DNA of 64,000 nucleotides, from NCBI GenBank assembly GCA_964491475.1, contig CAZBFO010000003.1, positions 8,766-72,765 on the forward strand. The letters are read 5' to 3'. The first letter of the stretch is position 1. Each line of letters begins with the position of its first letter. The notes under the pieces were generated by a model, which saw only the letters and a list, made by a program, of their open reading frames with translations, was not told the DNA's origin and ran no database searches. This document shows positions 890-59,184 of this stretch, piece by piece. Both the position numbers and the translations under genes were made by a program. The stretch comes from an uncultured Gammaproteobacteria bacterium (lineage in GTDB: Bacteria > Patescibacteriota > Patescibacteriia > SG8-24).

Positions 890-1054
890 AGTCTAGCATA
901 TTGAGCCCTTTCTAGAACGCGCCAACCAAGAAAATTGTACGCGGGGGTGGCAGGGGCTGGGGACCCCGCGAGCGCGCAGTGTCGCCCGCAGGCGACCGAG
1001 CACTCGTGGGGTGAGCCCCTGACAGGCCCAGCGCAGTTTCTTGACAGCGCAACG

Positions 1055-2437: not shown

Positions 2438-2453
2438 ATTTCGGCCTTATTCC

Positions 2454-4039: not shown

Positions 4040-4116
4040 GGACGTTTAGCTCAGCTGGTTAGAGCGCTGTCCTCACACGACAGAGGTCGGTGGTTCGATC
4101 CCACCAACGTCCACCA
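4040..4116 (+). tRNA. tRNA-Val (anticodon CAC)
   Basis: Acceptor stem ggacgtt/aacgtcc; D arm agctcagctggttagagc; anticodon stem ctgtc/gacag with loop ctCACac; T arm ggttcgatcc; discriminator a plus encoded CCA. Confidence 0.85.
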
Positions 4117-9990: not shown

Positions 9991-12339
9991 ATGCTTGGAA
10001 GAGGTGCGAAACGAAAGAACGGGCAGCCCTGGTGGCTGCAAAAGAAGACCGCCTTTTTGACGCTCGCGGTTTTTCTTTTTGTCGGAACGGCGGTGTTCGG
10101 CCATGCTGTTGCCGCGTTCGCGCAGGTCAATGCCAAGGTCGGCCTCGGCGTCGAGTTTGCCACGGCGACCGGGCTGGCTACAGGCGACATCCGCACCTAC
10201 GTCTCCAAGATCATCCGCTACTTCCTGCTGCTGCTCGGCACCATCGCCGTGATCCTTTGCATGTACGCCGGCTTCCTCTGGATGACGGCCGGCGGCAACG
10301 AAGAAAAGATTTCCCAAGCGAAGAAAATCCTGACTAACGCGGTGATCGGCCTGCTCATCATCGTCGCCGCATACGCCATCGTGGCGTTCATCTTGCAATC
10401 TTTGGGCATCGATACCGGAGGGGGAGTGACTTCGAGCGGATCCGGTTCCTCGGGCGCCTTGTCCGGCGGAGGAAACGGCTCCAGTCAGCTGGGCAACGGC
10501 ATCATCGAGTACCACTATCCGGAACCGGGACAGACCGACGTGCCCCGCAACACCAAGATTTCGATCACCTTCAAGAAGCCGCTGGTGCTGTCGTCGGTCA
10601 TCAAGAACTACAACGACAAGGGCACTTATGATCCTTCCGACGACCTGCTGTGCGCCAGCGGCAATACTTGCGCTACCGGTACCGCGATTACCTCCGGCAC
10701 GGTGCTTTCCCTGAACACCGATAACATCAAGATCATTCCCAACAGCGCCTTGTTGCCTGGCGGTTCGGGCACTATCGACCAGCAATTCACCAATCGGTAT
10801 CCTGCCGCCTCGACCTCTGACGCCACCTCTCGCTTCACCGCCGTGGTGGTGCCGATGACCGCCGGTCAGCAGCAGACCATCGTGCTCAAGCCGGTGGCGC
10901 CGATCGGTTCCGCCACCGAGAACGTGAACTATCGCGTGGCGCTGCGCGGCGGCGACAACGGCGTGAAGGCCTGGACGCTCCCCGCCACCGGCGCGACGCC
11001 CGTTGCCGGTGCGGCCTTCTCGCGCACCTATGCCGACGGCGGCTATTACTGGTCTTTCACCACCAGCACCATCATCGACGTGACGCCGCCGCAGATCACC
11101 TCGGTCGTCTCTTCGACCTCGTACCCGGTCGGAACGCCGAGCACTTCGATCCTGTACCGCAACCAGTTGCTGCAGATCTACTTTAACGAAGCCATCGATC
11201 CGACCACTTCTACCGGCATCATCGGCACCGGTCCGGGCGGGGGATTCACGATCATTTCCGTTACGGGTCAGTGCAAGCCGGGCACCTATGATGCCAGCGG
11301 CGTCAACGACCCGACGAAGTGCGTCTTCAACGGCGGCAATCCCGGTTCCATCGACGGTACCGTGGCCATCGGCAATCGCAGCACCACGCTGGAGTTCACG
11401 CCGAGCACCCTCTGCGAAAACGTGCCCCTGAACTCCTGCGGCGAGCAGGTGTTCTGCCTGCCGAAGAACGTTCAGCTGACGGTGCGCGCGCTGGCCGCTT
11501 CCATCGGAGCCAGCGGTCCTTCCTCCATAGCTTCCGACGGCGTCGTCGACATGGCCGATAACTCCATGGACGGCAACCAGAACGGCACGGCAGAAGGTCG
11601 TCCGTCGGCGGTGCAGACCGTCAATCCGGCGAGGACTGCCGACTTCTACCGAAACAACCCGCAGACTGGCACCGACCTGGACACCGTGGACGACAACGCC
11701 AAATGGGACTATTGGGTGGGGGCGGACGTGGATTTGGTGGCCCCGTTCATCACCGAGATGGACCCGATTCCGCTGGGTAACGGCGCTCCGCTGCAGTATC
11801 CGGCCGGACCTTCGCAGGTGCCTCCGGACTTGGTGCCCGCGATCACCTGGAGCAAGGTCATGAGCATCGGCTCCATCCGCACCGGCGCGTTCGACGAATC
11901 GACGAAATCCTACACGCCGCCCACGTCGACGCTTTCGCTCCGTTCAAACGAATGCAAGAAGAACGGCGCCGACGCCTGCAAGCCGGGCGTGGCCTGCGCC
12001 TGCACGCCTGTCGAAGCTCCGGGATACTTCATCGACTCCGGCCTGCCTATAGCGGGATCGAACGGCGCCTTCTTTACCAAGATGCGCTTCCTGCATCCGG
12101 TCCGTCCGTTTTTTACGGCGAACGATCTCGGGTATACTGATGCTGACGTGCTGGCAGGCGCGAACATCCCCATGTACGTGCCCATCTCGCGGGCCCAACT
12201 GCGCGACACCCGGCAGAACTGCTTCTACCCCAGCAAGTACACCTCGTGCAGTACCAATCCTTCCACCGGTCAAACGTCCTGCTGCAACAGCCAAGTGACG
12301 GCAGACGGCACGTTCCTCACTACGTGCACGCCCAACTAG
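9991..12339 (+). CDS. large secreted/surface protein: signal peptide plus two-helix pilin-like (VirB2/TrbC-type architecture) N-terminal module, Ig-like domains, Cys-rich C-terminus
   Basis: 782 aa; N-terminal ~130 aa paralogous to the N-terminus of the following giant ORF (..YAGFLWMTAGGNEEKISQAKKIL..); Ser/Thr/Gly-rich beta-domain-like repeats; C-terminal CCNSQV..C. Confidence 0.8.
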   Translation: MLGRGAKRKNGQPWWLQKKTAFLTLAVFLFVGTAVFGHAVAAFAQVNAKVGLGVEFATATGLATGDIRTYVSKIIRYFLLLLGTIAVILCMYAGFLWMTAGGNEEKISQAKKILTNAVIGLLIIVAAYAIVAFILQSLGIDTGGGVTSSGSGSSGALSGGGNGSSQLGNGIIEYHYPEPGQTDVPRNTKISITFKKPLVLSSVIKNYNDKGTYDPSDDLLCASGNTCATGTAITSGTVLSLNTDNIKIIPNSALLPGGSGTIDQQFTNRYPAASTSDATSRFTAVVVPMTAGQQQTIVLKPVAPIGSATENVNYRVALRGGDNGVKAWTLPATGATPVAGAAFSRTYADGGYYWSFTTSTIIDVTPPQITSVVSSTSYPVGTPSTSILYRNQLLQIYFNEAIDPTTSTGIIGTGPGGGFTIISVTGQCKPGTYDASGVNDPTKCVFNGGNPGSIDGTVAIGNRSTTLEFTPSTLCENVPLNSCGEQVFCLPKNVQLTVRALAASIGASGPSSIASDGVVDMADNSMDGNQNGTAEGRPSAVQTVNPARTADFYRNNPQTGTDLDTVDDNAKWDYWVGADVDLVAPFITEMDPIPLGNGAPLQYPAGPSQVPPDLVPAITWSKVMSIGSIRTGAFDESTKSYTPPTSTLSLRSNECKKNGADACKPGVACACTPVEAPGYFIDSGLPIAGSNGAFFTKMRFLHPVRPFFTANDLGYTDADVLAGANIPMYVPISRAQLRDTRQNCFYPSKYTSCSTNPSTGQTSCCNSQVTADGTFLTTCTPN

Positions 12340-12349
12340 TGCTGACGCA

Positions 12350-15300
12350 ATGACTGCCATGACCACTTTCGTGAAAACCACACTCAAAAAGATTCGGAAC
12401 GCGTCGGCTGCGATAGCCGTCGCGTTTCTGGCGCTTCCGGTGGCCGTGTACGCGGCCGGTCCCGACCTCGGTTTGTCGTATGCAACTGCTACCGGACTGA
12501 CCACCACGGACATCCGCACGGTCATTGCCAGGATCATCAGCTACTTCCTGGGACTGCTCGGGCTGATCGCCCTGCTGCTGATTCTGTATGCGGGCTTCAC
12601 CTGGATGACTGCCGGCGGCAACGAAGAAAAGGTCAGCCAGGCCAAGCGCATCCTCACGCAAGCGGTCATCGGCCTCGTCATCATCATGTCGGCATTCGCC
12701 ATCACGCAGTTCGTCATCGGCGCGATTACCGAGGGAACTTTGGGAGGCAACACCTCGAACAGCGGCTGCACCACTCCGGGGGGGTGCTGCCCCGCCGGCC
12801 AGATCTGCAGCGGCCTGTCCGGAGGAGGGGGATTCAACGTTACCGGCATCACTCCGGCGGGCGCAGGCCCTGGTAATGGCGGCTGGCCCAAGAATTCCTC
12901 GCTCTCGGTCAATTTCAACGCCAACGTCAACATGGCCAGCGCCACCTCCACCAACGTGCAGGTGTTCAAATGCAATCCGCGTTTGGTGAACGGGGCCGCT
13001 TCGCCCTTCAATTACAATTCCTGCAATACGCCGGTGGCCGGCACCATCACCGCTGGCGGCAGCGGCAACCGCATTGACTTCCAGCCGACTGGCACGCCGG
13101 GACCGAACCCGACCGATTTCGAGGCCGATTTCTGGTACAAGATCAGCGTGCAGGGTCAGGCGGTGACCTCGCAGGCCGGCGATCCGCTGCAGTGCCCGCT
13201 TTTCACCTCGGACATTTCTTTGCCGACCGCCCTGAACTCCTATTGCGCTCGCGCCGTGGCTTTCAACGACAAGCGTGACACGCAACCGCCGACGGTCACG
13301 ATCGGCTCTCCGGTCTCGCCGCCCCCGTATTGCGCTTCTTCTTCCGGCGGCAGCCTGGTGCAGGTGATAGCCACGGGCAATGACGACTTCATGGTCGCGG
13401 GCGTCGACTACCTGCTCGACGGCGGCAGTTCCGGCCTGACCGACGTGCGCGGCGTTCCGTTGTCGTCCTCCGTCAACAACGCGGCCGCATTGCCGTTCAA
13501 CTCCGCTGACATCTACGCGGACATCGGCAAGTTGGCGCCGGGCATGCATTCGGTGAGCGCCGTGGCGCGGGACGGCGTGCCGCAGATGAGCTCGACCGCG
13601 CAAACGCAGTTCAAGGTGAACGCGCCGCATTGCTGCAACAACGTGCTCGACACCGCGCAAGGCGAGACCGGCAAGGACTGCGGAGGGGAGTGCGGCTCCT
13701 GCGTCGGAGGGTCCTGCACCGCCACTGCCGATTGCGCCGCGGGTGCGGTCTGCGTCAGCGGCAAATGCGTTACGCAGCCGACGATCACCAGCATCAACAC
13801 CTATTCCGCCGGGCCCGGCACGTACATCACCATCAAGGGAACCGGTTTCGGCACGATTGCCGGCACGGTCACGTTCCTCGGCGCCGCCGGCGACGGCGAC
13901 GACAAGATCGCGCAGGCCTGCGCCGCCAACCAGGGCTGGTCCGACACGCAGGTCATCGTGATCGTCCCTGCGGGCGCAGTCGACGGTCCCATCAAGCTGG
14001 CCGCATCGACGGGATTCGACGCCACCAACGATGCCAACGGCCCGCAGCTGCCTGATTTCAAGATCACTACCGCGACCGCCCCCGGCATCTGCTATCTCGA
14101 TCCGGCTTCCGGAGCTGCTGGCACCAAGTTTGCCATCAACGGCGCGGGCTTCGGGGCTACCATCGGCACGAGCTTCGTGCAGGTGGGATCGACGCAGGCG
14201 ACTGTCGTGACCTGCGGCACGGGCGATACCGACTGCGGTTGGAGCGACTCCCGCATCTGGGTGACGACGCCGCCGATCGCCGAAGGGGATTATCCCGTCA
14301 CTGCAACCGTCAACGGCACGCTTTCCAATCCGAGCACCTACGTGATCAGGCCGGCAGACCCGTTGGCCAGGCCCACCGTCACCGGTGTCATTCCCGAATC
14401 CGGCCCCGTCGGCACCTATGTCACCATCCAAGGTCTGCACTTCGGCACGCGCAAGGGCGTGGTGAAGTTCCTTTACGGCTCCGGCCTCACGGCCGAGGTC
14501 GCCCTTTCCGACGATCCCGTCTGCAGCGACAACTGGCACGACAACTACATCATCGTGAAGGTGCCGGCCAAATATAAGAGCACCTTGCCCGTCAACGCCT
14601 CCAACGCGGGCGTGTCGCATGGCATCCAAGTGGAGACGTCGACGCCCACGCAGATCAGCAACAACAATATTTCTTTCGGCGTGAACTTGGATCCGCTGCG
14701 CCCCGGCATCTGCTCGCTCAAGCCGGACAACGGTCCGGCTGCCAGCAATGTGACCGTGAACGGCGAAGGGTTCAACGGGGGAGGGCAGACGCCGTCTTCG
14801 CCGGGAGCCGCCTCCTCGCCACGGTTCAGCCTTGAATTCTACAAGACCGTCGGCAAGCACTGTCTCTACAGCCCGGCGACCGCCTGCGACGCATTGGCGC
14901 TCGGCACGGCCTGTCCCACTTCGGGTCAGGGCGTTTGCGTCCCCAACACCTTGCCTGCGCCGTTGTTCCGCAGCTGGAGCGACACCACGATCGAAGGGGT
15001 GGTCGCCGGCATTACCACCGACAAGGCCACCTGGCCGAAGACCGGTCCGGTGTACGTCATCGCCAACAACCAGTTGAGCGCCAACGCGGTACCGTTCACC
15101 GTGCAGGACTGCAACCAGGCGGGCATCACTTGCCCCGTCGGCAATCAGTGCTGCTCGAACGGCGCCTGCCAGACCAGCTGCGTGCCTGCCGCCAAGACCA
15201 GCGCCTACGGCTGGCAGTTCAGCACCAGCGTGCTGCCTGCGCTGCCCTATGTCATCGAGCGTGCGCAATGCGACATCGATGCCAAGCTGTTCCAGAGCCC

Positions 15301-18300
15301 GTCGCCGGCGCACGACAGTCAGGATGCCTGCAAGAACGCCCAGGCATACTTCGAGTTCAGCAGGCCGCTCGACACCTCGACCATCAGCAACTCGACCGTG
15401 AAGGCGGACAAATGCGGCACCGGCGATACGCCTGACTGCACGACACCGGTTTCCGTCGCCATGACCATCGGTCAGTCGTCTTTTACCGGTTGCGACGCCC
15501 TGAATCCCGCAAATTGTACCGGCTTCCAGACGCAGCCGAGTCCCGGCTACAACGGCGGCTTCTGGGAAAAGAAGGCCTGGTACCGTGTCACGCTGGTTTC
15601 CAATCCCGCGACCGGCATCGGTCTCCGGGAACCGGGTCCCACGGGTAAGTTCCTGGACGGAGATTTGGACAAGAAGCAGGGCGGCAACTACGTCACCATG
15701 TTCCGCGTTCGCGACAGCGATGACCCGTGCCAGATCGCCAACGTGCTCGTGGCGGCTTCTCGCCAGCTCATCGCCGACGACCAGAACCCCATCGGCTTCA
15801 ACGCCAACCCCATTGCCGCGAACTGCAACGTCCTCACCTGCGACGACAATCAGTACAACATTTCCTGGATTGCCGTTCCGGCCTACCTGACCACCAACAT
15901 CGCGCCGATGTCCCAGCCGACGTCGCAGTGCACCCGAAAGGCGTTGGCGCTCAAGGAGACTCCTCCGGGCCTGACGACCCCGTTCACTGCCACGATGTCC
16001 TCCAAGCCCTCGGGTCCGCCGAAGTCCGGCCAATCCGACGTCACGGTGAAGTTTGCCGATCCGAAGGTCATCGCCGTGAGTCCTACCAACGGCTGCACGC
16101 AGGCATGCATCAACGCGGCGATAACCGCGACGTTCAACGTGCCGATGAACGCCGCTTCGTTGAGCGCGTCCAACGTGCAGGTGCAGATCTGCCGCAACGA
16201 CACCTGCGCGCCGCCGTACCTGCCGTTGCCGAACGGTTTCACCTACACCACCTCCTTGTCACCGGACGGCTTCAAGCTGACGGTCAACAAGTCGATGGAC
16301 TTCGCCGTCAACACCTCGTACATCGTGCGCATCCTCGGCGACAATCCGGCTACGCCGGCGATCGAGGGCGCCTACAGCTTGAGCGGCGTGCCGCTTTCCG
16401 GCCTCAACGACGGCCAGAGCTTCTCTTGGAAGTTCCGCACCAAGAACGACCCCTCGCGCTGTGCCGTGGCCAGCACCAAGCTTGAACCCAAATCGGCAAT
16501 CCTGCGGTTCGTAGGTGACAGGGAGGACCTGACCGGCACCGGTTACGGTTCGGCCGATGCCTGCAATCCCGACGGTCAGGAACTCGACACCAGCACCACC
16601 AACTGGCTGTGGACTTTCGACAACCCGAATTTGGTGCTGCAAGGTTTCGTCCATGGCGACGATCTGGCCGGTCCGTACCAGTTCTGGAAGCCGGAAGTGA
16701 AAGCGACGCAATCCACCGTGGTCGACACCAAGCCGCATCCGGTGCTCGGTTGCAGCTCCAGCTGCCTCTACTCCGGCTCGCAGGATTCCTTGCCGGCCTG
16801 CGGCGACGGCATCGTCGACAGCAAGTTCGAGGCATGCGACCTTGGTCCCGCCAACGGCACCGGTCCGTGCAACAAGAACTGCACCTGGCGCGGCAATACC
16901 GCGGCAAACGGCTGCGGTGACGGCAACGTCGACCCCACCAAGGGAGAGGAGTGCGACATGATCAGCGGCGTGTTCCCGCCGGGCTGCAAGAAGCCCGACG
17001 TGGTCGATCCGAACGGCATCTTCGCCACCAACATCGGCTGCATCATGACCGGCGCTTCGACCGTGCCGGGGACGCAGTGCGGCAACGGCCTGATCGGCGA
17101 CGGCGAAGAGTGCGACGACGGCAGCTTGAGCAACGGCGACGGCTGCAACTCGGACTGTCTGCTTGAAGGTTCGCGTCCGTCATGCGTAATCGATCCGACC
17201 AATCCGCAGTGCATCGGCGTCTGCGGCAACGGCAAGCTGGAACCCGGCGAAGACCCTGATTGCGAGAAGGCAGGCGTTTCGCCGTCCACGCTCAACTGCA
17301 GCCCACACACTTGCCTCAAGAACGGCACTTCGGCTTGTGGCACGCCAAACGACCTCAACTGCTGCGGTAATGGCAAGGCTGATCCGGGCGAAGACCCCGC
17401 ATGCGACACCGTCAACGGCATTCCCCTGTACTGCACCACGCGATGCCTGCTCAAAGGCTCCTCGGCTTTCTACGACAAGCCGTCGTTCTGCGGTGACGGC
17501 TACAAGGGAGCGGGGGAAGTGGCTTCCTGCGAGCCCACCGGCAACGGCGACGGTAACACCGACGGCTACCAGGCGACGGTGGCCAACACCCAGCCCGGCT
17601 TCGACGCCACCAATCCGGCCGGCAGCATGAGCACGGTGAAGGGTTCGATTGCCGGCGTCAGCGACGCCAAATCCGGCCGATCCCAGATCACGCTTAGCTG
17701 CACCTGCAAGAACGAGCCTGTAAATTCCCAGGACACCTTCTGCGCCAACCTCCGCCCCGACTTGGCTTGCGCCGACAACGGCTGCTGCATGCCCAGGCCG
17801 ACGGTGGAACGCGTGGAGCCGACCACCTTCAACTCGTGCCGCAACGCGCTTGTGACCATGGTGTTCAGCGAGGTCATGGATGACTCCTCCGTCACCAAGA
17901 ACTTCATGATCGGCTTCGGCAACGGCAACGACGCTTGCCCGCAAGGGACCGTCGAAGTGCCTGCCGCCTACGTGCCGCAGTCTTTCTGGGTACGGTTGTG
18001 GCAGGGGATGGTCAACTTCCTGAAGGACACCTTCATCCGTCCCGTCTTCGGCGTCAGCGGCAACGACGCCGGTTACGACCAGCAGAAATTCTGCAGCGTC
18101 AAGGGCAACGCGATCATGTTCGTCGACGGTACCGGTCCGACCAAGAAATCGGTGCTGACCTTCACGCCTTCCCACGCTTACCCGACAGACAAGTACATGC
18201 GCATTCGCCTGAACGCCGGTGCCAAATCCGCCAGGGGCGTGCCTTTGTCCATCACGAATACCAGCGGTGCAGGCGGTTATACCGCTTACTTCGGCACCGG

Positions 18301-21300
18301 TTCCACGATTTGCGCCGTCCAGAAGGTGACGGTCAATCCGCCGTCCATCCTGCTTTCGTCGGTCGATGACCAGCAGGTCGTCATGGCAAACGCCGTGGCT
18401 GCCGGCGGGCAGGCCATCGCGCCTACGCCCGAATACGCCTGGGGCTGGTCATGGGACACGTATCCCTCGCAGCCGGTCTCCACGGCCGCCCCGCTGGTGA
18501 TTACCCCTCGCGTCTCCAACATCACCGCCTGCTCCCTCGGTGCCAAGTGCACCGCTGCCGGCGGCTGTCCGTGCTACATCGATTCCGGTTCGGCCCTGTG
18601 TACCGTTGCCGGCGGCGCCGATTCCTGCACGGGCACCGTCACTGAAACCCTGCCGATTGCCGATCTGCGCGTTCGCGGCTCCAAGGCCGCAGACGGCGCC
18701 TATTCGCCGAAGAACAGCAAGGGGCAGCTGCCGATCAACGCCAAGGCGGTCATCGCCAACGAATGCGTGCTGCCGTCGGTCTGCACCTCGCCCTCGGGTT
18801 GCAACTGCGGCGTCGGCCCGTCCTCCTGCACGGTCATCAACGGCGCCACGTCCTGCGCGGTTCTCTCCGGTTCGGGCGTCTCCGTAATCAGCTCGCAAAC
18901 CACCACGGGCACCGGTTCCGCCGTGGTAATGCTCTGCAAGCACCCGTGGCCGAATTATCACGCCTGTGTCGGTCAAGGTTGCTATACGGACATCTGGGAG
19001 CCGTATTCTCCGTTGGAATTCCCCGGCGTGGCCTTCTACTACTGCCGCGATTTGGGCAAGACGGGCGCCACATCGATGGCGCCTGGGCAGCCTGTCGCGG
19101 ACGCCGCCGGGGGAACGAAGCCTGCCAAGTCCGCCTTGCTCGCCGGCTCCACTGCTCCCGCGACCACGCTGCCGTGTCTCAAGGAGACTCCCGCCAGCGT
19201 AGCGGCGCCGGTACCGGGCATTCTTCGCGAGTACCTGTTCACTTATGAGTCGAATCTTAGCAATTGCCCTGATGGTCCGCAGTCTGCGGGCGCGCCATGG
19301 CTAAACGACGCTTTCGGCCTGCGCGTTTCGTCGAACGAGAAGCACGTGAGCATCGGCGATTGGTACTTCGGCCGAGGTTTCCGCGGCAATCCGACCCCGA
19401 AGGCGGTTGACGGTTATGGCGCCCTTAGCGAGGGCCGAACCACCTACGTCAGCGCCGCATTCCGAAAGGCAAGCTCGCAGAAGCTCTACACCAACTCATA
19501 CATCCTCTCGTACAGCGACAATTCCGCTCCGGAGACTTCCGCCATCTACGACCAGATACTAGCGAACGTCGATTTCAATGCGGATCCCGACCTGCAGAAC
19601 TTCGGCGCGTGCCGCCTCGGTCCGTCGCGAACCGACGCCATGGTGCTTTGCACCGTCGATAACGACTGCCGCGTCGACAGCTTCGGCAGGCCCGTTCCCG
19701 GCCGTGAGCAGTACAAGTGCGACGCGGCGACCCATACCGGGTGCGTCACCGATAAAAACGTCGCCGCGCCTGATGCCGGCAACCCTGTCGCTTGCGGCAC
19801 CGATTACGACTGCCTCGTCGGCGCTGGCGGCACTTCGCTGAATCGCCCCGCAACGGTCACCTGCGACGTGCCCAAGGCCAAGCTCACGCGCGACGTGAAG
19901 CGATGGTCCGACCTGCTGTCGCTGCGCGATTCGCTGGTCGCCAAGGCGACGGAGACCGGCTCGTTCCCCAAACTTGATGCCGGAACCTTCCTGCGCGCCC
20001 AAACGAACAGCACTTGGCCTTCGTGGGGTGATGCGTTCGCCAAGGGCGTCGGCGGTACCGTGCCGAACGATCCTGTGAACCAGCATGCCGTCTGCGCGGG
20101 TCCGAACCAGCCTTACGACCCCAAGACCTGCTGGGATGCCAACAGGCGTCAGTACGTCTGTCCTCAAGGTTCGCACGTCTACGAGTACCAGAGTTTCGGC
20201 GGCGTCGACTTCTGGCTGCGCAACGATTTCGAGTACGACGTGCTCGGCGATTCCTGGGCCGGCGGCACCTGCCTCGACAAGACCGATCTCGCCTCCTGCA
20301 TCGCCGATCCGATGTGCGGCGGCACCTGCAGCAACAACAAGGCGCAATCTTGCACCGACAGCGGAGATTGCAACGGCGGCACCTGCCAGGTTCCGTGCAA
20401 CTTCCGACTCGGCAAGGTCATCTTCGGCGCAGGGAATTCTGCTTCCTGCCAGGGCGTGCCGATCAGCCCGACCAGTGGCGGTTCCTGCGGTGACGGCATC
20501 CTGCAGGACAACCAGTCTGATCCCGCCAAGAACGAAGTCTGTGAAATCCGCATGACCCAGTCGCAGGCCTGCAACTCCGACCCTGCTAAGCTGGTACAGA
20601 AGCAGGGTGCTTATACGCAGACCTGCAATTCGCAGTGCAACGGCTGGGTGACGCAGGGCGTGTGCACCGCAAGCAGCCAACGTGCCGGGTTTATCTGCGT
20701 CACGAGCGCTGATTGCGGCACGGGCGGTTCCTGCATCACCTGGACCGATTTCCGCTGCAACGGCGAGGCGGGCAACGCCAAGAACGGCGCCGCCTGCGTC
20801 AAGGATTCCGACTGCACTGATGGCGCCAAGAAGGGCGTCTGCGCCAGCGCATGCCAAGGCGGCCGATGCGGCGACGGCGCCGTGCAGGCTCCCGAGCAGT
20901 GCGATGACGGCGCGTTGAACGGCACCTACGGTCATTGCAAGGCGGACTGCACCGCAGTCGGCTTCTCCTGCGGTGACTCGCTGCGCCAGCCCAACGAGGC
21001 TTGTGACTGCGGCGGCGCCAACGGCCAATATGCCTTCAACGGCATCAAGGCCGCGGCGTCCAACACCAATGCTCCCAACCAGTGTCTCCAGAACCCGGCC
21101 GGTTTCAACGTTTACTCGTGCTCTTGGGACTGCAGCGGCGCGGGTCCGCGCTGCGGCGACGGCATAGTCAACGGCACCGCCGAAAAGTGCGACGGCGGCT
21201 TCGAGGAGTTCAAGGGATTCTGCAACGATGCCGCCCAGACGGGCTGCAACGCCACTGCGAACTGCCCCGCGATCGGTACATGCGTTGGCGGCAAATGCAG

Positions 21301-23155
21301 CAACGGCGACAACGTTTCCTGCGTCTCCAATTCGGATTGCGTGGGATCCTGCGGCCACTTCTGCCCGACAGTCGAGCAGAAGCAGCGCCACTCCTGCAAC
21401 CCCAACAATCCGGCGACCATCGCCGATGACGCCACGGCATGCACCTGGTCCGCTTGGACCTGCACGTCGCCCGGCACCTGCGGCAACGGCAAGAAGGAAA
21501 CCGGAGAGCAGTGCGATGACGGCAATACCGACAATACCGATTCTTGCATCATCGACACGTCGCTCAACTACACCTGCAAGGCTTCCATCTGCGGCGACGG
21601 CTACGTAAATCCGGGTGCCGGCGAAGAGTGCGATACCGGTTCGAGCAACGGACGGCCGTGCATTCCCAAATACGGCATCACTTGCAACTACTGCAACGGC
21701 AATTGCCGTGTCGCCACCGTTTCCGGCGCCTACTGCGGCGACAATGCCATACAGGACTCCACCACCGTGCCCGTCGGTCCGGAACAATGCGACGGCGTAA
21801 AGGGACTGGGTGACGATTGGGTGTGCGTGTCCAACAAGGAAGAGAACCGGTCGTTCGGGCTCATCACTGGTCCCGGCGGCTGCTCGAACCAGACCTGCCA
21901 GCGTGCCTGTGCCGACCCAAACTCTTCGGCATGCAACAACACGGGCGGCAACACCGACAGCGATCAGTGCCCTCCTGGGGCCGCGAAGTCGTGGTGCGAT
22001 TCGCGCAAGGCATTGTCGGACAAGGCGTACACTTCCGTCAGCAGCTCATTCAACCTCACGTTCCTCAAGAGCAACACGACGCCGGCGGGGCTCAACGACA
22101 GCTGCGATCCCGACGACGACAATGACGGCGTGCCCGACAGCCTCGATTGCGACCCCAAGAACGCCAACGCCCATCCCTCCTACCAGATTCCCCCTCACGA
22201 CGGATTGGGCGCGGTGCTCATTCCTGCGGCACCCGAAGTCTGCGACGGCATCGACAATGACTGTGACGGAAAGATTGACAACCTGTTGAGTTTAAGCGGT
22301 CAGATGGTCGACGCGCAGACCGACAAGAAGCTGCCGGGCGCGTCCATCCAGTTCTTCTGCGGACCGAACCTGGTGTACGAGTTTCAGGACAACCAGATTG
22401 ACGGGAACGGAAACTTCAACGTCAACAATGCCGCCATCGACTCATCGCTTTGCGCGGGCGTCACGCAAATCGACTACAAGATCGTGTATGGCGGCGGCTT
22501 GTGCGGCGACGCCGGCGGAAGCTTCCCGTACACCCCAGGCGGTTGCTACGGCTGGATACTTCCCAAGCGATACGTCACCAAGAAGCCCGCTCCGGGCGAT
22601 GTTCGTGCCATTCTTACCTGGGGCGCGAACCCCCGAGACGTCGACTTCCACCTGTTTGCCAACCATGATAAGCCGAACAATCATTTGTGGTTCAGCGCCG
22701 GGGGAGGCAACGGTTCAAACATCAGGGCGCAAGTCAACGACGATGCAGGCTTATATACGCTGGACCACGATAGCACGACCGGCCTCGGTCCCGAGACCAT
22801 CTCGCTGCATCCTAAAGACACCTCGACGATTTACCGATTCGTCGCGCATCGATTCAGCGGCTCGGGTGACCTGCTGGCAAGCCCCATTCGAATCATCGCT
22901 TACGCCGTAAGCAAGCTCGACAACTCTTGCATGGAAAGCGTGTGGAACGCGCCGATCTATACGGGTTACAACCCCGTTTCCGACGATGTCTGCGTCTTCC
23001 AAGTACAGGGGGACAAGGTCGGCAACTGGGCAGGGCATGCTGACTGGCCCTTCTTCGCCTGTCCGCACGACACCACTCACAACATGCTGTTCATCAAGCC
23101 TGGCACGAACGGCAACGACGATACGGACGGTGACGCGCCCAAGTTCGACTACTAG
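12350..23155 (+). CDS. giant (3601 aa) cysteine-rich surface protein: pilin-like N-terminal module, 4 IPT/TIG domains, Ig-like domains, two blocks of Myxococcus-type cysteine-rich repeats, Asp-rich metal-binding motifs
   Basis: Uninterrupted 10.8 kb ORF with GC3 bias; TIG-like repeats (..ITSINTYSAGPGTYITIKGTGFG.. x4, ~13.8-14.8 kb); CGNGxxxxGEECDDGxxxNGDGC repeats (~16.75-17.56 and 20.85-21.80 kb); DCDPxxxNAHP...CDGIDNDCDG near the C-terminus. Confidence 0.85.
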   Translation: MTAMTTFVKTTLKKIRNASAAIAVAFLALPVAVYAAGPDLGLSYATATGLTTTDIRTVIARIISYFLGLLGLIALLLILYAGFTWMTAGGNEEKVSQAKRILTQAVIGLVIIMSAFAITQFVIGAITEGTLGGNTSNSGCTTPGGCCPAGQICSGLSGGGGFNVTGITPAGAGPGNGGWPKNSSLSVNFNANVNMASATSTNVQVFKCNPRLVNGAASPFNYNSCNTPVAGTITAGGSGNRIDFQPTGTPGPNPTDFEADFWYKISVQGQAVTSQAGDPLQCPLFTSDISLPTALNSYCARAVAFNDKRDTQPPTVTIGSPVSPPPYCASSSGGSLVQVIATGNDDFMVAGVDYLLDGGSSGLTDVRGVPLSSSVNNAAALPFNSADIYADIGKLAPGMHSVSAVARDGVPQMSSTAQTQFKVNAPHCCNNVLDTAQGETGKDCGGECGSCVGGSCTATADCAAGAVCVSGKCVTQPTITSINTYSAGPGTYITIKGTGFGTIAGTVTFLGAAGDGDDKIAQACAANQGWSDTQVIVIVPAGAVDGPIKLAASTGFDATNDANGPQLPDFKITTATAPGICYLDPASGAAGTKFAINGAGFGATIGTSFVQVGSTQATVVTCGTGDTDCGWSDSRIWVTTPPIAEGDYPVTATVNGTLSNPSTYVIRPADPLARPTVTGVIPESGPVGTYVTIQGLHFGTRKGVVKFLYGSGLTAEVALSDDPVCSDNWHDNYIIVKVPAKYKSTLPVNASNAGVSHGIQVETSTPTQISNNNISFGVNLDPLRPGICSLKPDNGPAASNVTVNGEGFNGGGQTPSSPGAASSPRFSLEFYKTVGKHCLYSPATACDALALGTACPTSGQGVCVPNTLPAPLFRSWSDTTIEGVVAGITTDKATWPKTGPVYVIANNQLSANAVPFTVQDCNQAGITCPVGNQCCSNGACQTSCVPAAKTSAYGWQFSTSVLPALPYVIERAQCDIDAKLFQSPSPAHDSQDACKNAQAYFEFSRPLDTSTISNSTVKADKCGTGDTPDCTTPVSVAMTIGQSSFTGCDALNPANCTGFQTQPSPGYNGGFWEKKAWYRVTLVSNPATGIGLREPGPTGKFLDGDLDKKQGGNYVTMFRVRDSDDPCQIANVLVAASRQLIADDQNPIGFNANPIAANCNVLTCDDNQYNISWIAVPAYLTTNIAPMSQPTSQCTRKALALKETPPGLTTPFTATMSSKPSGPPKSGQSDVTVKFADPKVIAVSPTNGCTQACINAAITATFNVPMNAASLSASNVQVQICRNDTCAPPYLPLPNGFTYTTSLSPDGFKLTVNKSMDFAVNTSYIVRILGDNPATPAIEGAYSLSGVPLSGLNDGQSFSWKFRTKNDPSRCAVASTKLEPKSAILRFVGDREDLTGTGYGSADACNPDGQELDTSTTNWLWTFDNPNLVLQGFVHGDDLAGPYQFWKPEVKATQSTVVDTKPHPVLGCSSSCLYSGSQDSLPACGDGIVDSKFEACDLGPANGTGPCNKNCTWRGNTAANGCGDGNVDPTKGEECDMISGVFPPGCKKPDVVDPNGIFATNIGCIMTGASTVPGTQCGNGLIGDGEECDDGSLSNGDGCNSDCLLEGSRPSCVIDPTNPQCIGVCGNGKLEPGEDPDCEKAGVSPSTLNCSPHTCLKNGTSACGTPNDLNCCGNGKADPGEDPACDTVNGIPLYCTTRCLLKGSSAFYDKPSFCGDGYKGAGEVASCEPTGNGDGNTDGYQATVANTQPGFDATNPAGSMSTVKGSIAGVSDAKSGRSQITLSCTCKNEPVNSQDTFCANLRPDLACADNGCCMPRPTVERVEPTTFNSCRNALVTMVFSEVMDDSSVTKNFMIGFGNGNDACPQGTVEVPAAYVPQSFWVRLWQGMVNFLKDTFIRPVFGVSGNDAGYDQQKFCSVKGNAIMFVDGTGPTKKSVLTFTPSHAYPTDKYMRIRLNAGAKSARGVPLSITNTSGAGGYTAYFGTGSTICAVQKVTVNPPSILLSSVDDQQVVMANAVAAGGQAIAPTPEYAWGWSWDTYPSQPVSTAAPLVITPRVSNITACSLGAKCTAAGGCPCYIDSGSALCTVAGGADSCTGTVTETLPIADLRVRGSKAADGAYSPKNSKGQLPINAKAVIANECVLPSVCTSPSGCNCGVGPSSCTVINGATSCAVLSGSGVSVISSQTTTGTGSAVVMLCKHPWPNYHACVGQGCYTDIWEPYSPLEFPGVAFYYCRDLGKTGATSMAPGQPVADAAGGTKPAKSALLAGSTAPATTLPCLKETPASVAAPVPGILREYLFTYESNLSNCPDGPQSAGAPWLNDAFGLRVSSNEKHVSIGDWYFGRGFRGNPTPKAVDGYGALSEGRTTYVSAAFRKASSQKLYTNSYILSYSDNSAPETSAIYDQILANVDFNADPDLQNFGACRLGPSRTDAMVLCTVDNDCRVDSFGRPVPGREQYKCDAATHTGCVTDKNVAAPDAGNPVACGTDYDCLVGAGGTSLNRPATVTCDVPKAKLTRDVKRWSDLLSLRDSLVAKATETGSFPKLDAGTFLRAQTNSTWPSWGDAFAKGVGGTVPNDPVNQHAVCAGPNQPYDPKTCWDANRRQYVCPQGSHVYEYQSFGGVDFWLRNDFEYDVLGDSWAGGTCLDKTDLASCIADPMCGGTCSNNKAQSCTDSGDCNGGTCQVPCNFRLGKVIFGAGNSASCQGVPISPTSGGSCGDGILQDNQSDPAKNEVCEIRMTQSQACNSDPAKLVQKQGAYTQTCNSQCNGWVTQGVCTASSQRAGFICVTSADCGTGGSCITWTDFRCNGEAGNAKNGAACVKDSDCTDGAKKGVCASACQGGRCGDGAVQAPEQCDDGALNGTYGHCKADCTAVGFSCGDSLRQPNEACDCGGANGQYAFNGIKAAASNTNAPNQCLQNPAGFNVYSCSWDCSGAGPRCGDGIVNGTAEKCDGGFEEFKGFCNDAAQTGCNATANCPAIGTCVGGKCSNGDNVSCVSNSDCVGSCGHFCPTVEQKQRHSCNPNNPATIADDATACTWSAWTCTSPGTCGNGKKETGEQCDDGNTDNTDSCIIDTSLNYTCKASICGDGYVNPGAGEECDTGSSNGRPCIPKYGITCNYCNGNCRVATVSGAYCGDNAIQDSTTVPVGPEQCDGVKGLGDDWVCVSNKEENRSFGLITGPGGCSNQTCQRACADPNSSACNNTGGNTDSDQCPPGAAKSWCDSRKALSDKAYTSVSSSFNLTFLKSNTTPAGLNDSCDPDDDNDGVPDSLDCDPKNANAHPSYQIPPHDGLGAVLIPAAPEVCDGIDNDCDGKIDNLLSLSGQMVDAQTDKKLPGASIQFFCGPNLVYEFQDNQIDGNGNFNVNNAAIDSSLCAGVTQIDYKIVYGGGLCGDAGGSFPYTPGGCYGWILPKRYVTKKPAPGDVRAILTWGANPRDVDFHLFANHDKPNNHLWFSAGGGNGSNIRAQVNDDAGLYTLDHDSTTGLGPETISLHPKDTSTIYRFVAHRFSGSGDLLASPIRIIAYAVSKLDNSCMESVWNAPIYTGYNPVSDDVCVFQVQGDKVGNWAGHADWPFFACPHDTTHNMLFIKPGTNGNDDTDGDAPKFDY

Positions 23156-23181
23156 CCCGCCGCCGGCATTACCTCCAAAGT

Positions 23182-23700
23182 ATGGATTACGAAAACGCAT
23201 ACGACGACGGCGGCAAGCGGCGGACGACGATCATCGCGATCGTCGTCGTCGCCGTAGTGTTGGCGGGCATCGGGGTCATCGTCGCCCTTGTTTTGCGCAA
23301 CAGGTCGGCAGCCGGCGTTTCGTCGTCTTCAGTCGGAAACGGGGGGGCGACGCAGGGGGCCAAGGTGCCCGATGCAAGCTTTCAATACCAGCAGGTTTCC
23401 GACCCTGCTGCGGCAGTGGGCGGCACGGCGGTGAACGCCAATTCGCCGACAAAAGGCGAAACGCCCCAACCGGGCGTCGATCGCCTTTTGACCGACGAAG
23501 AAAAAAAGAACTACGGTTACCCGGTGGAGTGGAGGGTACGCATGCGAACGACAAAAGGAAGCCTCGGTCTTCAGACCGAAATCATCGTCGAAGACAAGGG
23601 TAACTGGAAATTGCCGGTTGGTAACAAAGAAAAAATCGAGGAGCCGGCTTCGGAACCCGCTCCCGTCGCTGCTCCGACGGCAGCGCCAAAGACGCAATAA
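23182..23700 (+). CDS. hypothetical membrane-anchored protein
   Basis: 172 aa; N-terminal TM helix IIAIVVVAVVLAGIGVIVALVL; extracytoplasmic tail. Confidence 0.5.
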   Translation: MDYENAYDDGGKRRTTIIAIVVVAVVLAGIGVIVALVLRNRSAAGVSSSSVGNGGATQGAKVPDASFQYQQVSDPAAAVGGTAVNANSPTKGETPQPGVDRLLTDEEKKNYGYPVEWRVRMRTTKGSLGLQTEIIVEDKGNWKLPVGNKEKIEEPASEPAPVAAPTAAPKTQ

Positions 23701-23743: not shown

Positions 23744-23778
23744 AAAACCCCTCTGAAAAGAGGGTTTTTGCGTTTTTG
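23744..23778 (+). terminator. intrinsic terminator
   Basis: cccctct-gaaa-agaggg hairpin followed by tttttgcgttttt. Confidence 0.55.
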
Positions 23779-23882: not shown

Positions 23883-24587
23883 ATGTTCGACGAAAAGAAC
23901 GAACCCGTAGACATCTTGGCGGACGTGGATAAGGTCGTGCCCATGACACCCATGTCTGCGGCGGCGCCTTCGCCCGAAGCTCGGGTCGTGCGTCGCGGAC
24001 CATCCGTTCTGCTGTTGTTCATCATTTTGGCCGCGCTCGGCGGACTGGGCACGGGCGGTTATTTCCTTTTCCGCAGCAAACCGGCAGAGACGCCGTCTGT
24101 GCCTGCCACCGTAATGGAGGATAAAACCGGCACTTCCGCGCAAAATGCTCACGCTACCCCCGCGCCTGCACAGGTCCCCACCCCAGCGGAGAATGCCCAG
24201 CCCGCTCCCGTACCGGTCACACAGCCCCCTGCGAACGTTCCGGTTCCGGCTTCAGGCTCGGGCACCAATGCCAACGCCAATGTTCCTCCGGCCAATGAGC
24301 CGCAACCCACGCAGCCGGTACAGCCTCCCGAACAAGTCCAGAAGCCGCCTGATTCCGACGGCGACGGCTTGAGCGATGCCGAAGAAGTGCAGCTCGGCAC
24401 GAATCCGCAAGCCGTCGATACGGATAGCGACGGCCTGACGGATTTCGATGAGGTCAAGATTTACGGAACCGATCCAAAGAACCCCGATACCGACGGAGAC
24501 GGTTATCTCGACGGCGCAGAGGTCAAGGGCGGATACAATCCGAAAGGACAAGGGAAGTTATTCCAAGTGCCTGCTTCTCCGAAGTAG
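23883..24587 (+). CDS. membrane-anchored Pro-rich protein with thrombospondin-type-3-like Asp (calcium-binding) repeats
   Basis: 234 aa; TM helix [15 protein letters not shown]; Pro-rich linker; [36 protein letters not shown] motifs. Confidence 0.6.
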
Positions 24588-24602
24588 GAAACCAGGAATC
24601 GT

Positions 24603-25718
24603 ATGGCCGAGAACCCGAATGAACTCACAAAACCTGCAGGTGCCGCACCAGGCGGTGACGAGCCGGTGATTCACATCATCCCGGAGAAGTTTTACGGTGC
24701 CGCCCTTCGCAAGAAATTGCCCAAGGCGCAGCCGGCTCCGGCCGCAGCGTCCCAACCGCAGCAGCAGGCCGCTCCCAAGAAGCAGGGGAAGACCGGGCTT
24801 TTGATCGCCATCGGCGTGCTGGTGCTTTTGATCGGCTCTGCCGGCGCCTATTTCTTGCTTGGCAGCAAGAAGACGGCCCCGCCGCCTGCTCCGGTGAACA
24901 CCGCCCCTCCTGCCCCGGTCTGCGGCGACGCCAAGTGCGATGCGCCGTCCGAGACTTACGAGAACTGCAAGGCCGACTGCCCTCCGCCACCTCCGGTGTG
25001 CGGTGATCGCCAGTGCGATGCGGCCACCGAAAACTACAACACCTGCCCCGCCGACTGCCCGCCTCCTGCTCCGGTCTGCGGCGACGCCAAGTGCGAGGAG
25101 CCGACGGAATCGGTCACGTCGTGCCCTGAAGACTGCAAGAAGCCCGAACCCACTGCCGGTGCCGACGCCGACGCCGACGGCCTGACGGACGAAGAAGAGT
25201 CCCAGCTGTATCACACCAATCCCAACGATCCCGAAACCGACAAAGACAGCTTCCTCGACAACAACGAAGTGCTGAAGCTGTTCGATCCGGCCAAACCGAC
25301 GCCGGCAATGCTCCGCGACAACCCCGGCATCGCCATCTACGCAAACGCCGAACAGCACTATGAGGTCTTCCGGCCGGCCAACTGGACGGTGAAGGAAGAT
25401 GACGCCTCCATGAAGACCGTGTTCTTCAACGCTCCCAGCGGCGAGACGGTCACCATCCTGATTTCGGACAAGCAGCCCGGCCAGACGATCATGGATTGGT
25501 ACTTGGCCCACACGCCAGGCGTCACCAGCTCGCAGGTCACCATGTATAACACGCGCCAGGGCTACGATGCCATCATCAGTCCCGACCAGTTCGCCCATTA
25601 CGTCGATTTGGGCAACGGTCATGTGGCTTCCGTGACCTACGGTCTCGGTACCCGCCTGCAGGTGCAGTACAAAGTCACCTTCCAAATGATGGTGCAGAGC
25701 CTGCGGAAGACGCAGTAA
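24603..25718 (+). CDS. membrane-anchored protein with three tandem 26-aa four-Cys repeats, a TSP3-like Asp motif and a C-terminal globular domain
   Basis: 371 aa; TM helix LLIAIGVLVLLIGSAGAYFLL; repeats PVCGDxxCDxxxExYxxCxxDCPPP x3; DADADGLTDEEE..NPNDPETDKD. Confidence 0.6.
   Translation: MAENPNELTKPAGAAPGGDEPVIHIIPEKFYGAALRKKLPKAQPAPAAASQPQQQAAPKKQGKTGLLIAIGVLVLLIGSAGAYFLLGSKKTAPPPAPVNTAPPAPVCGDAKCDAPSETYENCKADCPPPPPVCGDRQCDAATENYNTCPADCPPPAPVCGDAKCEEPTESVTSCPEDCKKPEPTAGADADADGLTDEEESQLYHTNPNDPETDKDSFLDNNEVLKLFDPAKPTPAMLRDNPGIAIYANAEQHYEVFRPANWTVKEDDASMKTVFFNAPSGETVTILISDKQPGQTIMDWYLAHTPGVTSSQVTMYNTRQGYDAIISPDQFAHYVDLGNGHVASVTYGLGTRLQVQYKVTFQMMVQSLRKTQ
24915..25148 (+). repeat. coding tandem repeat, 3 x 78 nt
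   Basis: Copies start at 24915, 24993 and 25071; copies 1 and 3 share an identical ccggtctgcggcgacgccaagtgcga start. Confidence 0.7.
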
Positions 25719-32517: not shown

Positions 32518-32595
32518 GGGTCCGTGGTGTAGCCCGGTTAACACGTCTCCCTGTCACGGAGAAGACCGAGGGTTCAAATCCCTTCGGACCCGCCA
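32518..32595 (+). tRNA. tRNA-Asp (anticodon GTC)
   Basis: Acceptor stem gggtccg/cggaccc; anticodon stem tctcc/ggaga with loop ctGTCac; T arm gagggttcaaatccctt; discriminator g plus CCA. Confidence 0.85.
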
Positions 32596-44152: not shown

Positions 44153-44153
44153 T

Positions 44154-44876: not shown

Positions 44877-44886
44877 CCTGACAACC

Positions 44887-50833: not shown

Positions 50834-50842
50834 TGCTACAAT
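50834..50842 (+). promoter_or_regulatory. extended -10 (TGCTACAAT) 9 nt upstream of ATG 50851 (leaderless candidate)
   Basis: TACAAT at 50837-50842 with TG at 50834-50835. Confidence 0.4.
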
Positions 50843-50850
50843 GGGCCTGT

Positions 50851-52395: not shown

Positions 52396-52401
52396 AAGCG
52401 C

Positions 52402-57112: not shown

Positions 57113-57122
57113 ATCGGTGATA

Positions 57123-59174: not shown

Positions 59175-59184
59175 GGAAGGGGGA

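Follow-up and report, generated by a model that had tools for sequence, protein, structure and literature searches.

We report on a window of 64,000 nucleotides (the whole stretch analysed: positions 8,766 to 72,765 of the forward strand of contig CAZBFO010000003.1, assembly GCA_964491475.1, filed as an uncultured Gammaproteobacteria bacterium) and on one 10.8-kb gene in it, at 12350-23155 on the plus strand. We believe, with a probability of roughly 0.6, that its product (the giant protein) is a membrane-anchored extracellular appendage protein for cell contact or adhesion, whose C-terminal tip would set the specificity. The open reading frame (ORF) is a single-chain fusion of a stalk protein and a secreted head protein, which are encoded by separate genes in most relatives.

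The gene is real, intact and under purifying selection. It runs from ATG to stop over 3601 codons with zero internal stops, as a first-pass annotation of this DNA had stated, and an independent Logan assembly (L001, a 24.7-kb contig from run SRR12313479) encodes the identical 3601-residue protein. The dN/dS ratio was computed in bins of 150 codons against the orthologue in the metagenome-assembled genome (MAG) nzgw371 (L002), which is 67-71% identical (about 75% outside the tip). It is 0.08-0.25 in each bin from residue 1 to about 3150, where the two proteins are collinear with almost no indels; identity then drops to 50% at residues 3151-3300 and to 24-30% over the last 300 residues. With no internal stop, an identical second assembly and a dN/dS well below 1, the pseudogene status considered in that annotation finds no support. 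Upstream of the ATG at 12350 there is no Shine-Dalgarno motif (sequence at 12340-12362), and the database entry for the orthologue P0001 (MISFVK...) uses a second in-frame ATG; the true start may lie at this codon, three codons downstream, at 12359. Two long minus-strand ORFs overlie the gene, 12320-16033 (1237 aa) and 19559-21787 (742 aa); they are an expected by-product of GC-rich, stop-poor DNA, and nothing marks either as a gene.

The giant protein contains 194 cysteines (5.39%), and not about 330 as had been estimated. This is about seven times the content of eight other proteins of the window (mean 0.75%), and all 194 are found beyond residue 127, i.e., C-terminal of the anchor, in the ectodomain. 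The protein is also rich in Gly, Ala, Thr and Ser (Ser/Thr together 16.7%). The earlier description of an exported, disulfide-rich, multidomain extracellular product is supported. The parts of the gene are listed below.

12350-12454, plus strand (aa 1-35): predicted Sec signal peptide, hydrophobic at aa 17-38 and then an A-x-A-like site, cleaved between ...PVAVYA and AG
12455-12739, plus strand: VirB2/TrbC-like T4SS_pilin module with transmembrane (TM) helix 1 (aa 57-88), a K/R-rich loop and TM helix 2 (aa 100-127)
12836-13771, plus strand: two immunoglobulin (Ig)-like domains (Big_5-like, aa 163-279; Big_7-like, aa 314-401) and a Cys-rich knot (aa 428-474)
13769-15064, plus strand (aa 474-905): four IPT/TIG repeats, from Pfam TIG and a four-way alignment
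15065-16789, plus strand: stalk segment with a Cys-rich stretch, a Big_5 domain and a conserved region
16799-17584, plus strand (aa 1484-1745): Cys-rich block A, six CG[DN]G...E.C[DE] units, from TIGR02232 and a regular-expression map
17585-19261, plus strand: distal stalk with a Big_5-like domain (aa 1816-1867, E 0.002), two Cys-rich units and conserved motifs
19262-20299, plus strand (aa 2305-2650): family-defining core, with block 1 (nt 19262-19609), a variable Cys-rich insert and block 2 (nt 19856-20269)
20300-21874, plus strand: Cys-rich region B, with about seven CG[DN]G...E.CD repeats at aa 2713-3175 (nt 20486-21874) on the same map
22067-22285, plus strand: Asp-rich junction, a TSP3-like CDPDDDNDGVPD (aa 3255) and then a MopE-type CDGIDNDCDG (aa 3298-3310, nt 22241-22280)
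22286-23152, plus strand (aa 3313-3601): variable tip, a CarboxypepD_reg-like sandwich and a beta domain with the motifs W..P.D.D.H and D.D..G.GPET

The N-terminal anchor was missing from the earlier domain list. Residues 52-122 match T4SS_pilin (PF18895) with 44.0 bits on the segment (E 2.4e-11) and 40.1 bits on the whole protein, the cut-off being 26.6; the family comprises VirB2/TrbC-like pilins and is typical of Patescibacteria (PMC12102498; bioRxiv 10.1101/2025.04.23.650224). The loop between the two TM helices is short and basic (TAGGNEEKVSQAKR), and the only hydrophobic windows of the giant protein are aa 17-38, 57-88 and 100-127. Twenty columns are invariant among eight such modules taken from stalk proteins and from partner proteins, the latter being encoded immediately upstream. 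The NCBIfam model NF045849 (Mbov_0395 family pilin-like conjugal transfer protein) gives 36.3 bits for the giant protein and 34.5 for the partner, both below the equivalog cut-off of 40. Pilins of PF18895 are expected to have about 100 residues and a VirB4-type type IV secretion system (T4SS) alongside, from which a protein of 3601 residues departs. A profile of the eight modules matched no solved VirB2/TraA sequence in the PDB; its matches there to designed 'Pizza' propellers are spurious. The C-terminus (...NDDTDGDAPKFDY) has no LPXTG sortase anchor, and no hydrophobic segment occurs past aa 127. With the usual VirB2 topology, the ~3470 residues C-terminal of the hairpin would be placed outside the cell, which fits their Cys content, and the hairpin would serve as the membrane anchor.

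The core defines the family. Its blocks are at aa ~2305-2420 and ~2503-2640 of the giant protein, split by the insert. An exhaustive HMMER search with aa 1741-2940 (1200 aa) against 1.84 billion cluster representatives recovered 1703 of them at E<1e-3 and 182 at E<1e-30, most being 3000-4700 aa long; word-indexed searches gave no match for aa 2101-2717 and only three for aa 2300-2640. Both core blocks are present in 136 of the 150 best representatives, and the pilin module occurs together with the core in 86 of the 150 (median length 3306 aa). Family members have public names (in Candidatus (Ca.) Uhrbacteria) such as 'hypothetical' or 'DUF4215 domain-containing protein'.

The AlphaFold2 (AF2) model of the core, built from a 27-sequence alignment, is confident (pLDDT 85.5, pTM 0.82). 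Neither Pfam nor NCBIfam matches the core, and Foldseek found nothing significant for the model in the PDB or in the viral library BFVD (best E 0.05-0.07, TM-score at most 0.17; for the PDB, E 0.05 and at most 0.15). The core profile reached only Ara h 8 among PDB sequences, at E 1.5, and a resemblance of block 1 to START/Bet v 1 folds was too weak for use. Polar residues N25, R210, D211, R214 and D270 of the core are invariant, and D16, R21 and H28 nearly so. Block 2 has a pattern like that of a pseudopilin head, K.KL.RD..R..DL...L......G.YP.L..GT...LP.DP.N...Y.Y. Its hhalign comparison with four GspG sequences gives a probability of 64.7% and a score of 31.7 in a local alignment of 30 columns only, against at most 18.3 for column shuffles and 25.9 for block shuffles; no pilin is among the Foldseek PDB matches of the core, and no hydrophobic helix precedes block 2. 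We treat the GspG similarity as a lead suggested by the alignment and do not classify the core as a pilin.

These data also bear on the proposal that the core is an unrecognised hydrolase or toxin delivered to the host envelope and positioned there by the stalk. The core is the most conserved part of the protein (in a comparison of 68 family proteins with complete C-termini, 100% of pairs are similar in it, with a median identity of 51%), some of its polar residues are invariant, no known fold matches it, and giant proteins with a cell-wall-degrading role offer a precedent (bioRxiv 10.1101/2023.11.21.568195). We nevertheless find this very unlikely, considering that no catalytic family in Pfam, NCBIfam or the PDB is similar to the core and that it resembles, weakly, only ligand-binding START/Bet v 1 folds and a pseudopilin helix.

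The giant gene belongs to a conserved cassette, the other elements of which in the window are as follows.

9991-12339, plus strand: partner gene, 782 aa, with a signal/TM region, T4SS_pilin (aa 67-134), a Big_5-like domain and ~600 aa having no known domain
23182-23700, plus strand: small single-pass membrane protein of 172 aa, encoded immediately downstream of the giant gene
23749-23777, plus strand: terminator-like hairpin CCCTCTGAAAAGAGGG with a T-run, from a consensus scan
23883-25718, plus strand: two TSP3-repeat single-pass membrane proteins, 234 aa and 371 aa (PF18884, E 4.4e-21 and 3.7e-5)

The partner had been taken for a truncated variant of the giant protein; it is a distinct conserved protein and not a truncated copy. 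It matches PF18895 with 32.7 bits (E 7.9e-8) and Big_5 at E 1.1e-4, it resembles the giant protein over the N-terminal ~180 residues only (45% identity; 72% in DNA over 253 nt), and the rest of it, with 17 Cys in the whole protein, has no significant similarity to the giant protein. The gene at 23182-23700 is probably the last of the transcription unit. Terminator-like sites in the region are not above the shuffle expectation, and the hairpin that follows is a weak indication. An ORF of 174 aa (23084-23608) in L002 has the same place and architecture as this gene and no similarity detectable by tblastn; the small protein, diverging in step with the adjacent tip, may be a tip-specific partner.

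A genome scan with one genome per species gave three relatives with the window's gene order, all with the partner orthologue directly upstream: L002 (783 aa + 3591 aa), L003, a MAG labelled Gammaproteobacteria (768 aa and an ORF cut by the contig end), and L004, a Ca. Parcubacteria MAG. Metagenome contigs scanned with a six-sequence core alignment gave 237 confirmed matches. The survey covers 83 loci, 80 of them metagenomic (with up to 10 kb of flank) and three from genomes; their six-frame ORFs were searched with the window proteins and a hidden Markov model of the pilin module. The cassette order is pilin-module partner, pilin-module stalk, core/tip head and two TSP3-repeat membrane proteins. 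The partner lies upstream of the stalk gene in 34 of the 35 loci with room for it, and the TSP3 genes lie downstream of the core/tip gene in 23/23 loci with enough flank.

Two arrangements account for most of these loci. Eight loci have, like the window, one ORF of 3100-3900 aa with both the pilin module and the core; they come from different samples with a GC content of 0.43-0.62, the partner is upstream in 7/7 with room, and the TSP3 genes and ybeY-dagK-ftsA-ftsZ are downstream in 4/4 with enough flank. In 32 loci the arrangement is split: ORF1 encodes a pilin-module protein (1600-2400 aa), and ORF2, for a separate protein of 1000-1660 aa, begins 4-55 nt past the ORF1 stop in 19 of the 21 junctions examined, the remaining two showing an overlap. 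The ORF2 product carries its own classical signal peptide, and the mature N-terminus is core block 1 (for example, MKKAKLAIFFGFFIIATLFFVYRESFAQ cleaved before SAGTSDAIGVRIIPNPNHYS). Here the partner is upstream in 27 of the 28 loci with room and the TSP3 genes are downstream in 19/19, with ftsA/ftsZ linkage in 0/18. The join can be placed in the window: ORF1 of L079 ends with ...VLKESYFFRETSN before its stop, which corresponds to ILREYLFTYES of the giant protein (aa ~2293-2303), and the core of the latter starts ~15 residues later.

Since the window has a single gene in place of the two of most relatives, and since GC-rich DNA yields long spurious ORFs (the antisense ORF of 1237 aa at 12320-16033 is an example), one may ask whether the gene is a chance open frame or an assembly chimera of two genes. 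We regard this as hardly credible: the independent assembly encodes the identical protein, the eight other loci with a single ORF come from the different samples mentioned, the dN/dS is well below 1 across the stalk/head junction, and curated domains match in the frame of the giant gene only.

The domain order given in the first-pass annotation is correct. The four IPT/TIG-like domains of the stalk are present: against a cut-off of 20.9, Pfam TIG (PF01833) reaches 70.7 bits (E 1e-19) on the segment and 56.5 on the whole protein; three stretches exceed the threshold, the fourth repeat is evident by alignment, and the region matches TIG domains of cyclodextrin glycosyltransferase among PDB sequences. 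Residues 459-548 also match, at E 1.6e-4, an 'IPT/TIG domain-containing protein' (15 chains) in PDB entry 8co1, namely its chain Q2. The Big_5-type Ig-like domains hold as well, with PF13205 at aa 1237-1328 (nt 16058-16333; 56.2 bits, cut-off 23.6) and weaker Big_5/Big_7-like copies, below cut-off, at aa 163-279, 314-401, 982-1037 and 1816-1867; the Ig-like pair at 12836-13771 is weak in Pfam (E 0.014 and 0.029) and has a dN/dS of 0.09-0.25. Residues 1341-1480 are conserved in the family and have no known domain; they were recognised in 88 of the 150 best representatives. In the distal stalk the conserved motifs are LCKHPWP...FYYCRD...ILREYLFTYES, the last part being the end of the separate stalk gene in split loci.

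The two Myxococcus-type Cys-rich blocks are likewise confirmed, with six units at nt 16799-17584 and about seven at nt 20486-21874. The TIGR02232 model (myxo_disulf_rpt) gives 44.1 bits (cut-off 20.8; E 1.3e-11) in three stretches, the best at aa 1575-1607, and the regular-expression map shows 13 repeat-like CG[DN]G units; DUF4215 (PF13948) remains below its cut-off of 27, with 17.6 bits on the whole protein and 21.0 on the best segment. Region B was recognised in 109 of the 150 best representatives. The Asp-rich CDGIDNDCDG segment described earlier also stands, as the MopE-type motif that comes after the TSP3-like one. With Cu-binding_MopE (PF11617), whose cut-off is 27, the C-terminal segment reaches 30.0 bits and the whole protein 26.5, and TSP_3 gives E 0.013; the same Asp-rich junction, right before the tip, is present in other family members and conserved across the family.

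The tip is the part that varies. In the 68-protein comparison (the tip taken as the last 280 aa, 2278 pairs), cores are detectably similar in 2278/2278 pairs, the middle regions in 63%, and the tips in 222 pairs (10%), forming 11 clusters. The window's cluster comprises 7 of the 68 proteins; the largest tip cluster is without a known domain. Pfam identifies a VWA domain in the tips of P0005, L011 and L007, a C-type lectin in P0031 and L006, and a right-handed beta-helix in L021, while a CarboxypepD_reg-like domain with an unannotated beta domain is found in the window, L002, L045, P0004, P0011, P0012 and P0021. All four are typical binding modules. The tip type of the window is shared by close relatives with the fused gene and by L045, a distant split locus whose core is 33% identical. 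In the core, L006 and L007 stand nearer to the window (39% and 38%), yet they have lectin and VWA tips. The incongruence of these tip and core sequences points to tip exchange or differential retention.

The assignment of the window's own tip is indirect. None of the 150 best family representatives matches it (last 292 residues), and it has no Pfam match itself (the cut-off of PF13620 is 32.3 bits); the nearest tip homologues, P0153-155, carry PF13620 at the aligned position, and a five-sequence tip profile finds a carboxypeptidase D domain in the PDB at E 0.05. The beta-sandwich-like domain proposed earlier for the C-terminus agrees with an AF2 model that is all-beta but poor (pLDDT 53), so that its Foldseek matches (BcpA pilin, antibodies) mean only 'beta-sandwiches'. 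A resemblance of the motif W..P.D.D.H / D.DD..G.GPE to DUF2135/YfaP was considered and dropped, as Pfam gave no such match at E up to 5.

The first-pass annotation had supposed that the repeat blocks invite recombination-driven variation. We reject recombination-prone DNA repeats as its source: DNA copies in the blocks are only 60-74% identical over at most 48 nt, there are no tandem arrays, and the blocks are collinear and conserved in the orthologue L002, while the variation is found at the C-terminal tip. A diversity-generating retroelement acting on the tip was also considered and rejected; no template repeat exists in the window, where blastn of nt 21900-23200 against the whole of it matches only itself.

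These results suggest the following course of events. The giant protein would be exported by Sec via its cleavable signal peptide and anchored in the cytoplasmic membrane by the N-terminal VirB2/TrbC-like two-helix pilin module, with ~3470 residues and 194 Cys projecting outwards. The stalk would take up the proximal two thirds, made of Ig-like, TIG and Big_5 domains together with Cys-rich repeats, and the distal third would form the head, consisting of the core, Cys-rich repeats, the Asp-rich junction and an exchangeable C-terminal binding domain. The core is probably a docking domain between stalk and head. We presume that the two act as one physical unit because they are fused in one ORF (Rosetta-stone logic). 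The assembly would most likely mediate contact with, or adhesion to, another cell or surface, the tip being the specificity determinant. The attachment or contact role that had been put forward earlier thus appears to be the best reading of the architecture.

Several points weigh against this. The function is deduced from architecture alone, and the core, for whose model no related fold was recognised, could do something other than docking. Eleven loci (L020, L025, L026, L027, L029, L033, L051, L052, L059, L067 and L074) fit neither the fused nor the split arrangement cleanly: they have at least 8 kb upstream of the core ORF and no adjacent pilin-module ORF, and three of them have only a pilin-module ORF of ~130 aa about 9 kb upstream; they could represent a third arrangement, inserted genes or frameshifts. 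The placement of the window in Patescibacteria rests on named relatives. Constraint is strong over the whole stalk, beyond the needs of a passive spacer. Finally, the gene is inherited vertically at a fixed site beside ftsA/ftsZ in the fused lineage, and hence it looks like a core envelope component rather than a typical accessory adhesin.

The last two points lead to the question of whether the cassette builds an S-layer-like structural layer or a spacer for envelope integrity or division, and not for cell contact. The strong purifying selection over the stalk and the fixed position beside ybeY-dagK-ftsA-ftsZ would suit such a scaffold; moreover, S-layer and envelope proteins commonly contain Big_5 (SbsA-type) and TIG domains, and the cassette includes TSP3 membrane proteins of a Ca-binding type. 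We find it quite unlikely all the same, since a swappable, fast-evolving tip with lectin, VWA and beta-helix modules speaks of ligand recognition and not of a lattice, and the ftsA/ftsZ linkage is missing in 18/18 split loci.

The pilin module raises a different possibility, namely that the partner and stalk modules polymerise into a conjugative-type pilus of the patescibacterial T4SS, alone or with small VirB2-like pilins encoded elsewhere, and that the giant ectodomain decorates or caps the filament. The PF18895 match is bona fide, and two module proteins stand side by side in nearly all loci, which recalls the tandem VirB2-like pilin arrays (PMC12102498, PMC12857230, PMC10633639). In F-type pili of known structure both ends of the pilin point outwards, so that an extension at the C-terminus would be sterically conceivable. 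We consider such a pilus unlikely, however: Pfam revealed no VirB4, no VirB6 and no other T4SS gene in the window ORFs scanned, the four closest loci have only two pilin-module ORFs each, the module profile matches no solved VirB2/TraA sequence, and an appendage of 3470 aa on every subunit is hard to pack, leaving the giant protein at best a minor subunit.

To return to the membrane-anchored contact protein, it is tempting to extend the proposal from one protein to the whole cassette, and we do so tentatively, as a possibility below even odds: the cassette would be a previously undescribed surface organelle, widespread in non-Saccharibacteria Patescibacteria. Two VirB2-derived hairpins would co-assemble in the membrane or in a short T4SS-type filament and would hold a disulfide-stapled stalk of ~100 nm, onto which the new-fold core would dock the head; lectin, VWA, beta-helix or sandwich tips would set the specificity for host or partner, and the gene of the window would be a natural single-chain version.

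The giant protein is a variant of two kinds of proteins already described, the giant adhesin-like proteins from the candidate phyla radiation (CPR) and the VirB2-like pilin-module proteins. Patescibacterial VirB2-like pilin arrays were surveyed in 2025 (PMC12102498); tandem arrays are essential in Southlakia (PMC12102498, PMC12857230, PMC10633639), and a cultured patescibacterium cannot do without surface adhesins and VirB2-like pilins (PMC10633639, PMC11665869, PMC12857230). The pilins of Southlakia epibionticum and Nanosynbacter share with the giant protein the PF18895 membership, a signal peptide, two helices and a basic loop, and the tandem of two module genes of patescibacterial origin is as here. 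However, the described pilins are small and lie in or near virB4 clusters, whereas here the module is the first 4% of a protein of 3601 aa and also a part of the 782-aa partner, with no T4SS gene in the scanned ORFs of the window. The searched text of the survey (PMC12102498) makes no mention of giant pilin-module fusions.

Large (>1500 aa) beta-rich repeat proteins of Parcubacteria/OD1 were read as adhesins in one sentence by Nelson & Stegen (2015, PMC4508563), and for Absconditicoccaceae a list of giant surface proteins exists (PMC13059738). Like the giant protein, these are very long, exported and rich in beta-sandwiches, come from reduced CPR genomes and are read as means of host attachment. 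Those reports give size and generic adhesion domains, but no anchor type, core, split or fusion, cassette or tip exchange, and their domain sets (fibronectin III, ConA, integrin, fibrinogen C) differ from the present one. The giant proteins of Omnitrophota (bioRxiv 10.1101/2023.11.21.568195) are similar in being multidomain proteins of ultra-small host-dependent bacteria encoded near conserved surface or secretion genes; they are far larger, occur at loci resembling type II secretion systems or type IV pili, and have a suggested role in cell-wall degradation, with no homology shown here.

Two looser likenesses should be mentioned. Myxococcus-type Cys-rich proteins (TIGR02232/DUF4215) have the CG[DN]G...E.CD units in common with the giant protein, but these repeats make up only ~20% of it, DUF4215 is below cut-off, and myxobacterial-type search matches (e.g., P0025 and P0028) have neither the pilin module nor the core. 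Phage tail fibres and modular adhesins follow the general principle of a conserved shaft with an exchangeable receptor-binding tip. The giant protein resembles tail fibres in its conserved proximal part and variable distal ~280 aa, but no sequence or fold relation was detected, and for the core Foldseek gave nothing in the viral structure library. In the open-access literature searched, we found no description of pilin-anchored giants, the core domain, the split or fusion of stalk and head, or the cassette.

As to the genome context, the rest of the window is of housekeeping character and encodes peptidyl-tRNA hydrolase, LytR, signal peptidase I, HisRS, YqeY, YbeY, DAGK, FtsA, FtsZ, pyruvate kinase, a P-type ATPase, an HtrA-like protease, two extracytoplasmic function (ECF) sigma factors, a tmRNA and two tRNAs. 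The 38 other ORFs scanned with Pfam included no VirB4, VirB6 or other T4SS gene and none for a type IV pilus. About 94% of the window falls within greedily chosen ORFs, and the named relatives are Ca. Uhrbacteria (GTDB class ABY1, genomes of 0.9-1.2 Mb) and Ca. Parcubacteria, which bears out the earlier expectation of a gene-dense, probably small genome, here of the Patescibacteria type. Cassette contigs also appear under the labels 'uncultured Gammaproteobacteria' (L003, CAZAPV010000023.1) and 'Methylophilaceae bacterium' (P0163, HLD09687.1); in both cases Patescibacteria DNA has probably been mis-binned. An epibiont from the Patescibacteria is documented on Methylophilaceae hosts (PMC13059738), and the co-binning with them might reflect physical association.

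A TMEM260-like protein O-mannosyltransferase is encoded at 35642-37453 on the plus strand (PF11028, E 8e-32), and it could glycosylate the Ser/Thr-rich giant ectoprotein and its partners. The ECF-type sigma factor genes are at 39236-39739 and 59806-60405, both on the plus strand; the second is overlapped by a gene for a DUF5667 protein (60359-61420, plus strand), possibly an anti-sigma-like partner. The tmRNA (37946-38337, plus strand) has the tag ANLLSRAKSALANAFAPSFVPAFA, and the tRNAs are tRNA-Val(CAC) at 4040-4116 and tRNA-Asp(GTC) at 32518-32595, both on the plus strand. ORFs with no Pfam match are 43725-45701 and 50836-53187 (minus strand), 57054-59342 and 935-2476 (plus strand) and about 12 smaller ones. 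Weak DUF11 and NPCBM-associated matches of the ORF at 55085-57112 (minus strand) suggest further uncharacterised surface proteins.

How ultra-small Patescibacteria recognise their hosts is an open question beyond a few cultured Saccharibacteria (PMC11665869), and the cassette is a widely conserved candidate for such contact: the giant gene alone takes ~1% of a genome of ~1 Mb, and the five-gene module is found on contigs of 0.35-0.62 GC. Public records name these proteins as described above, which amounts to an annotation gap. The system has parts that can be tested, namely an anchor derived from a conjugative pilin and a confidently modelled core with no Pfam, PDB or viral-library match, and the natural fusion of stalk and head makes their association directly testable. 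The type of tip could predict partner specificity from metagenomes.

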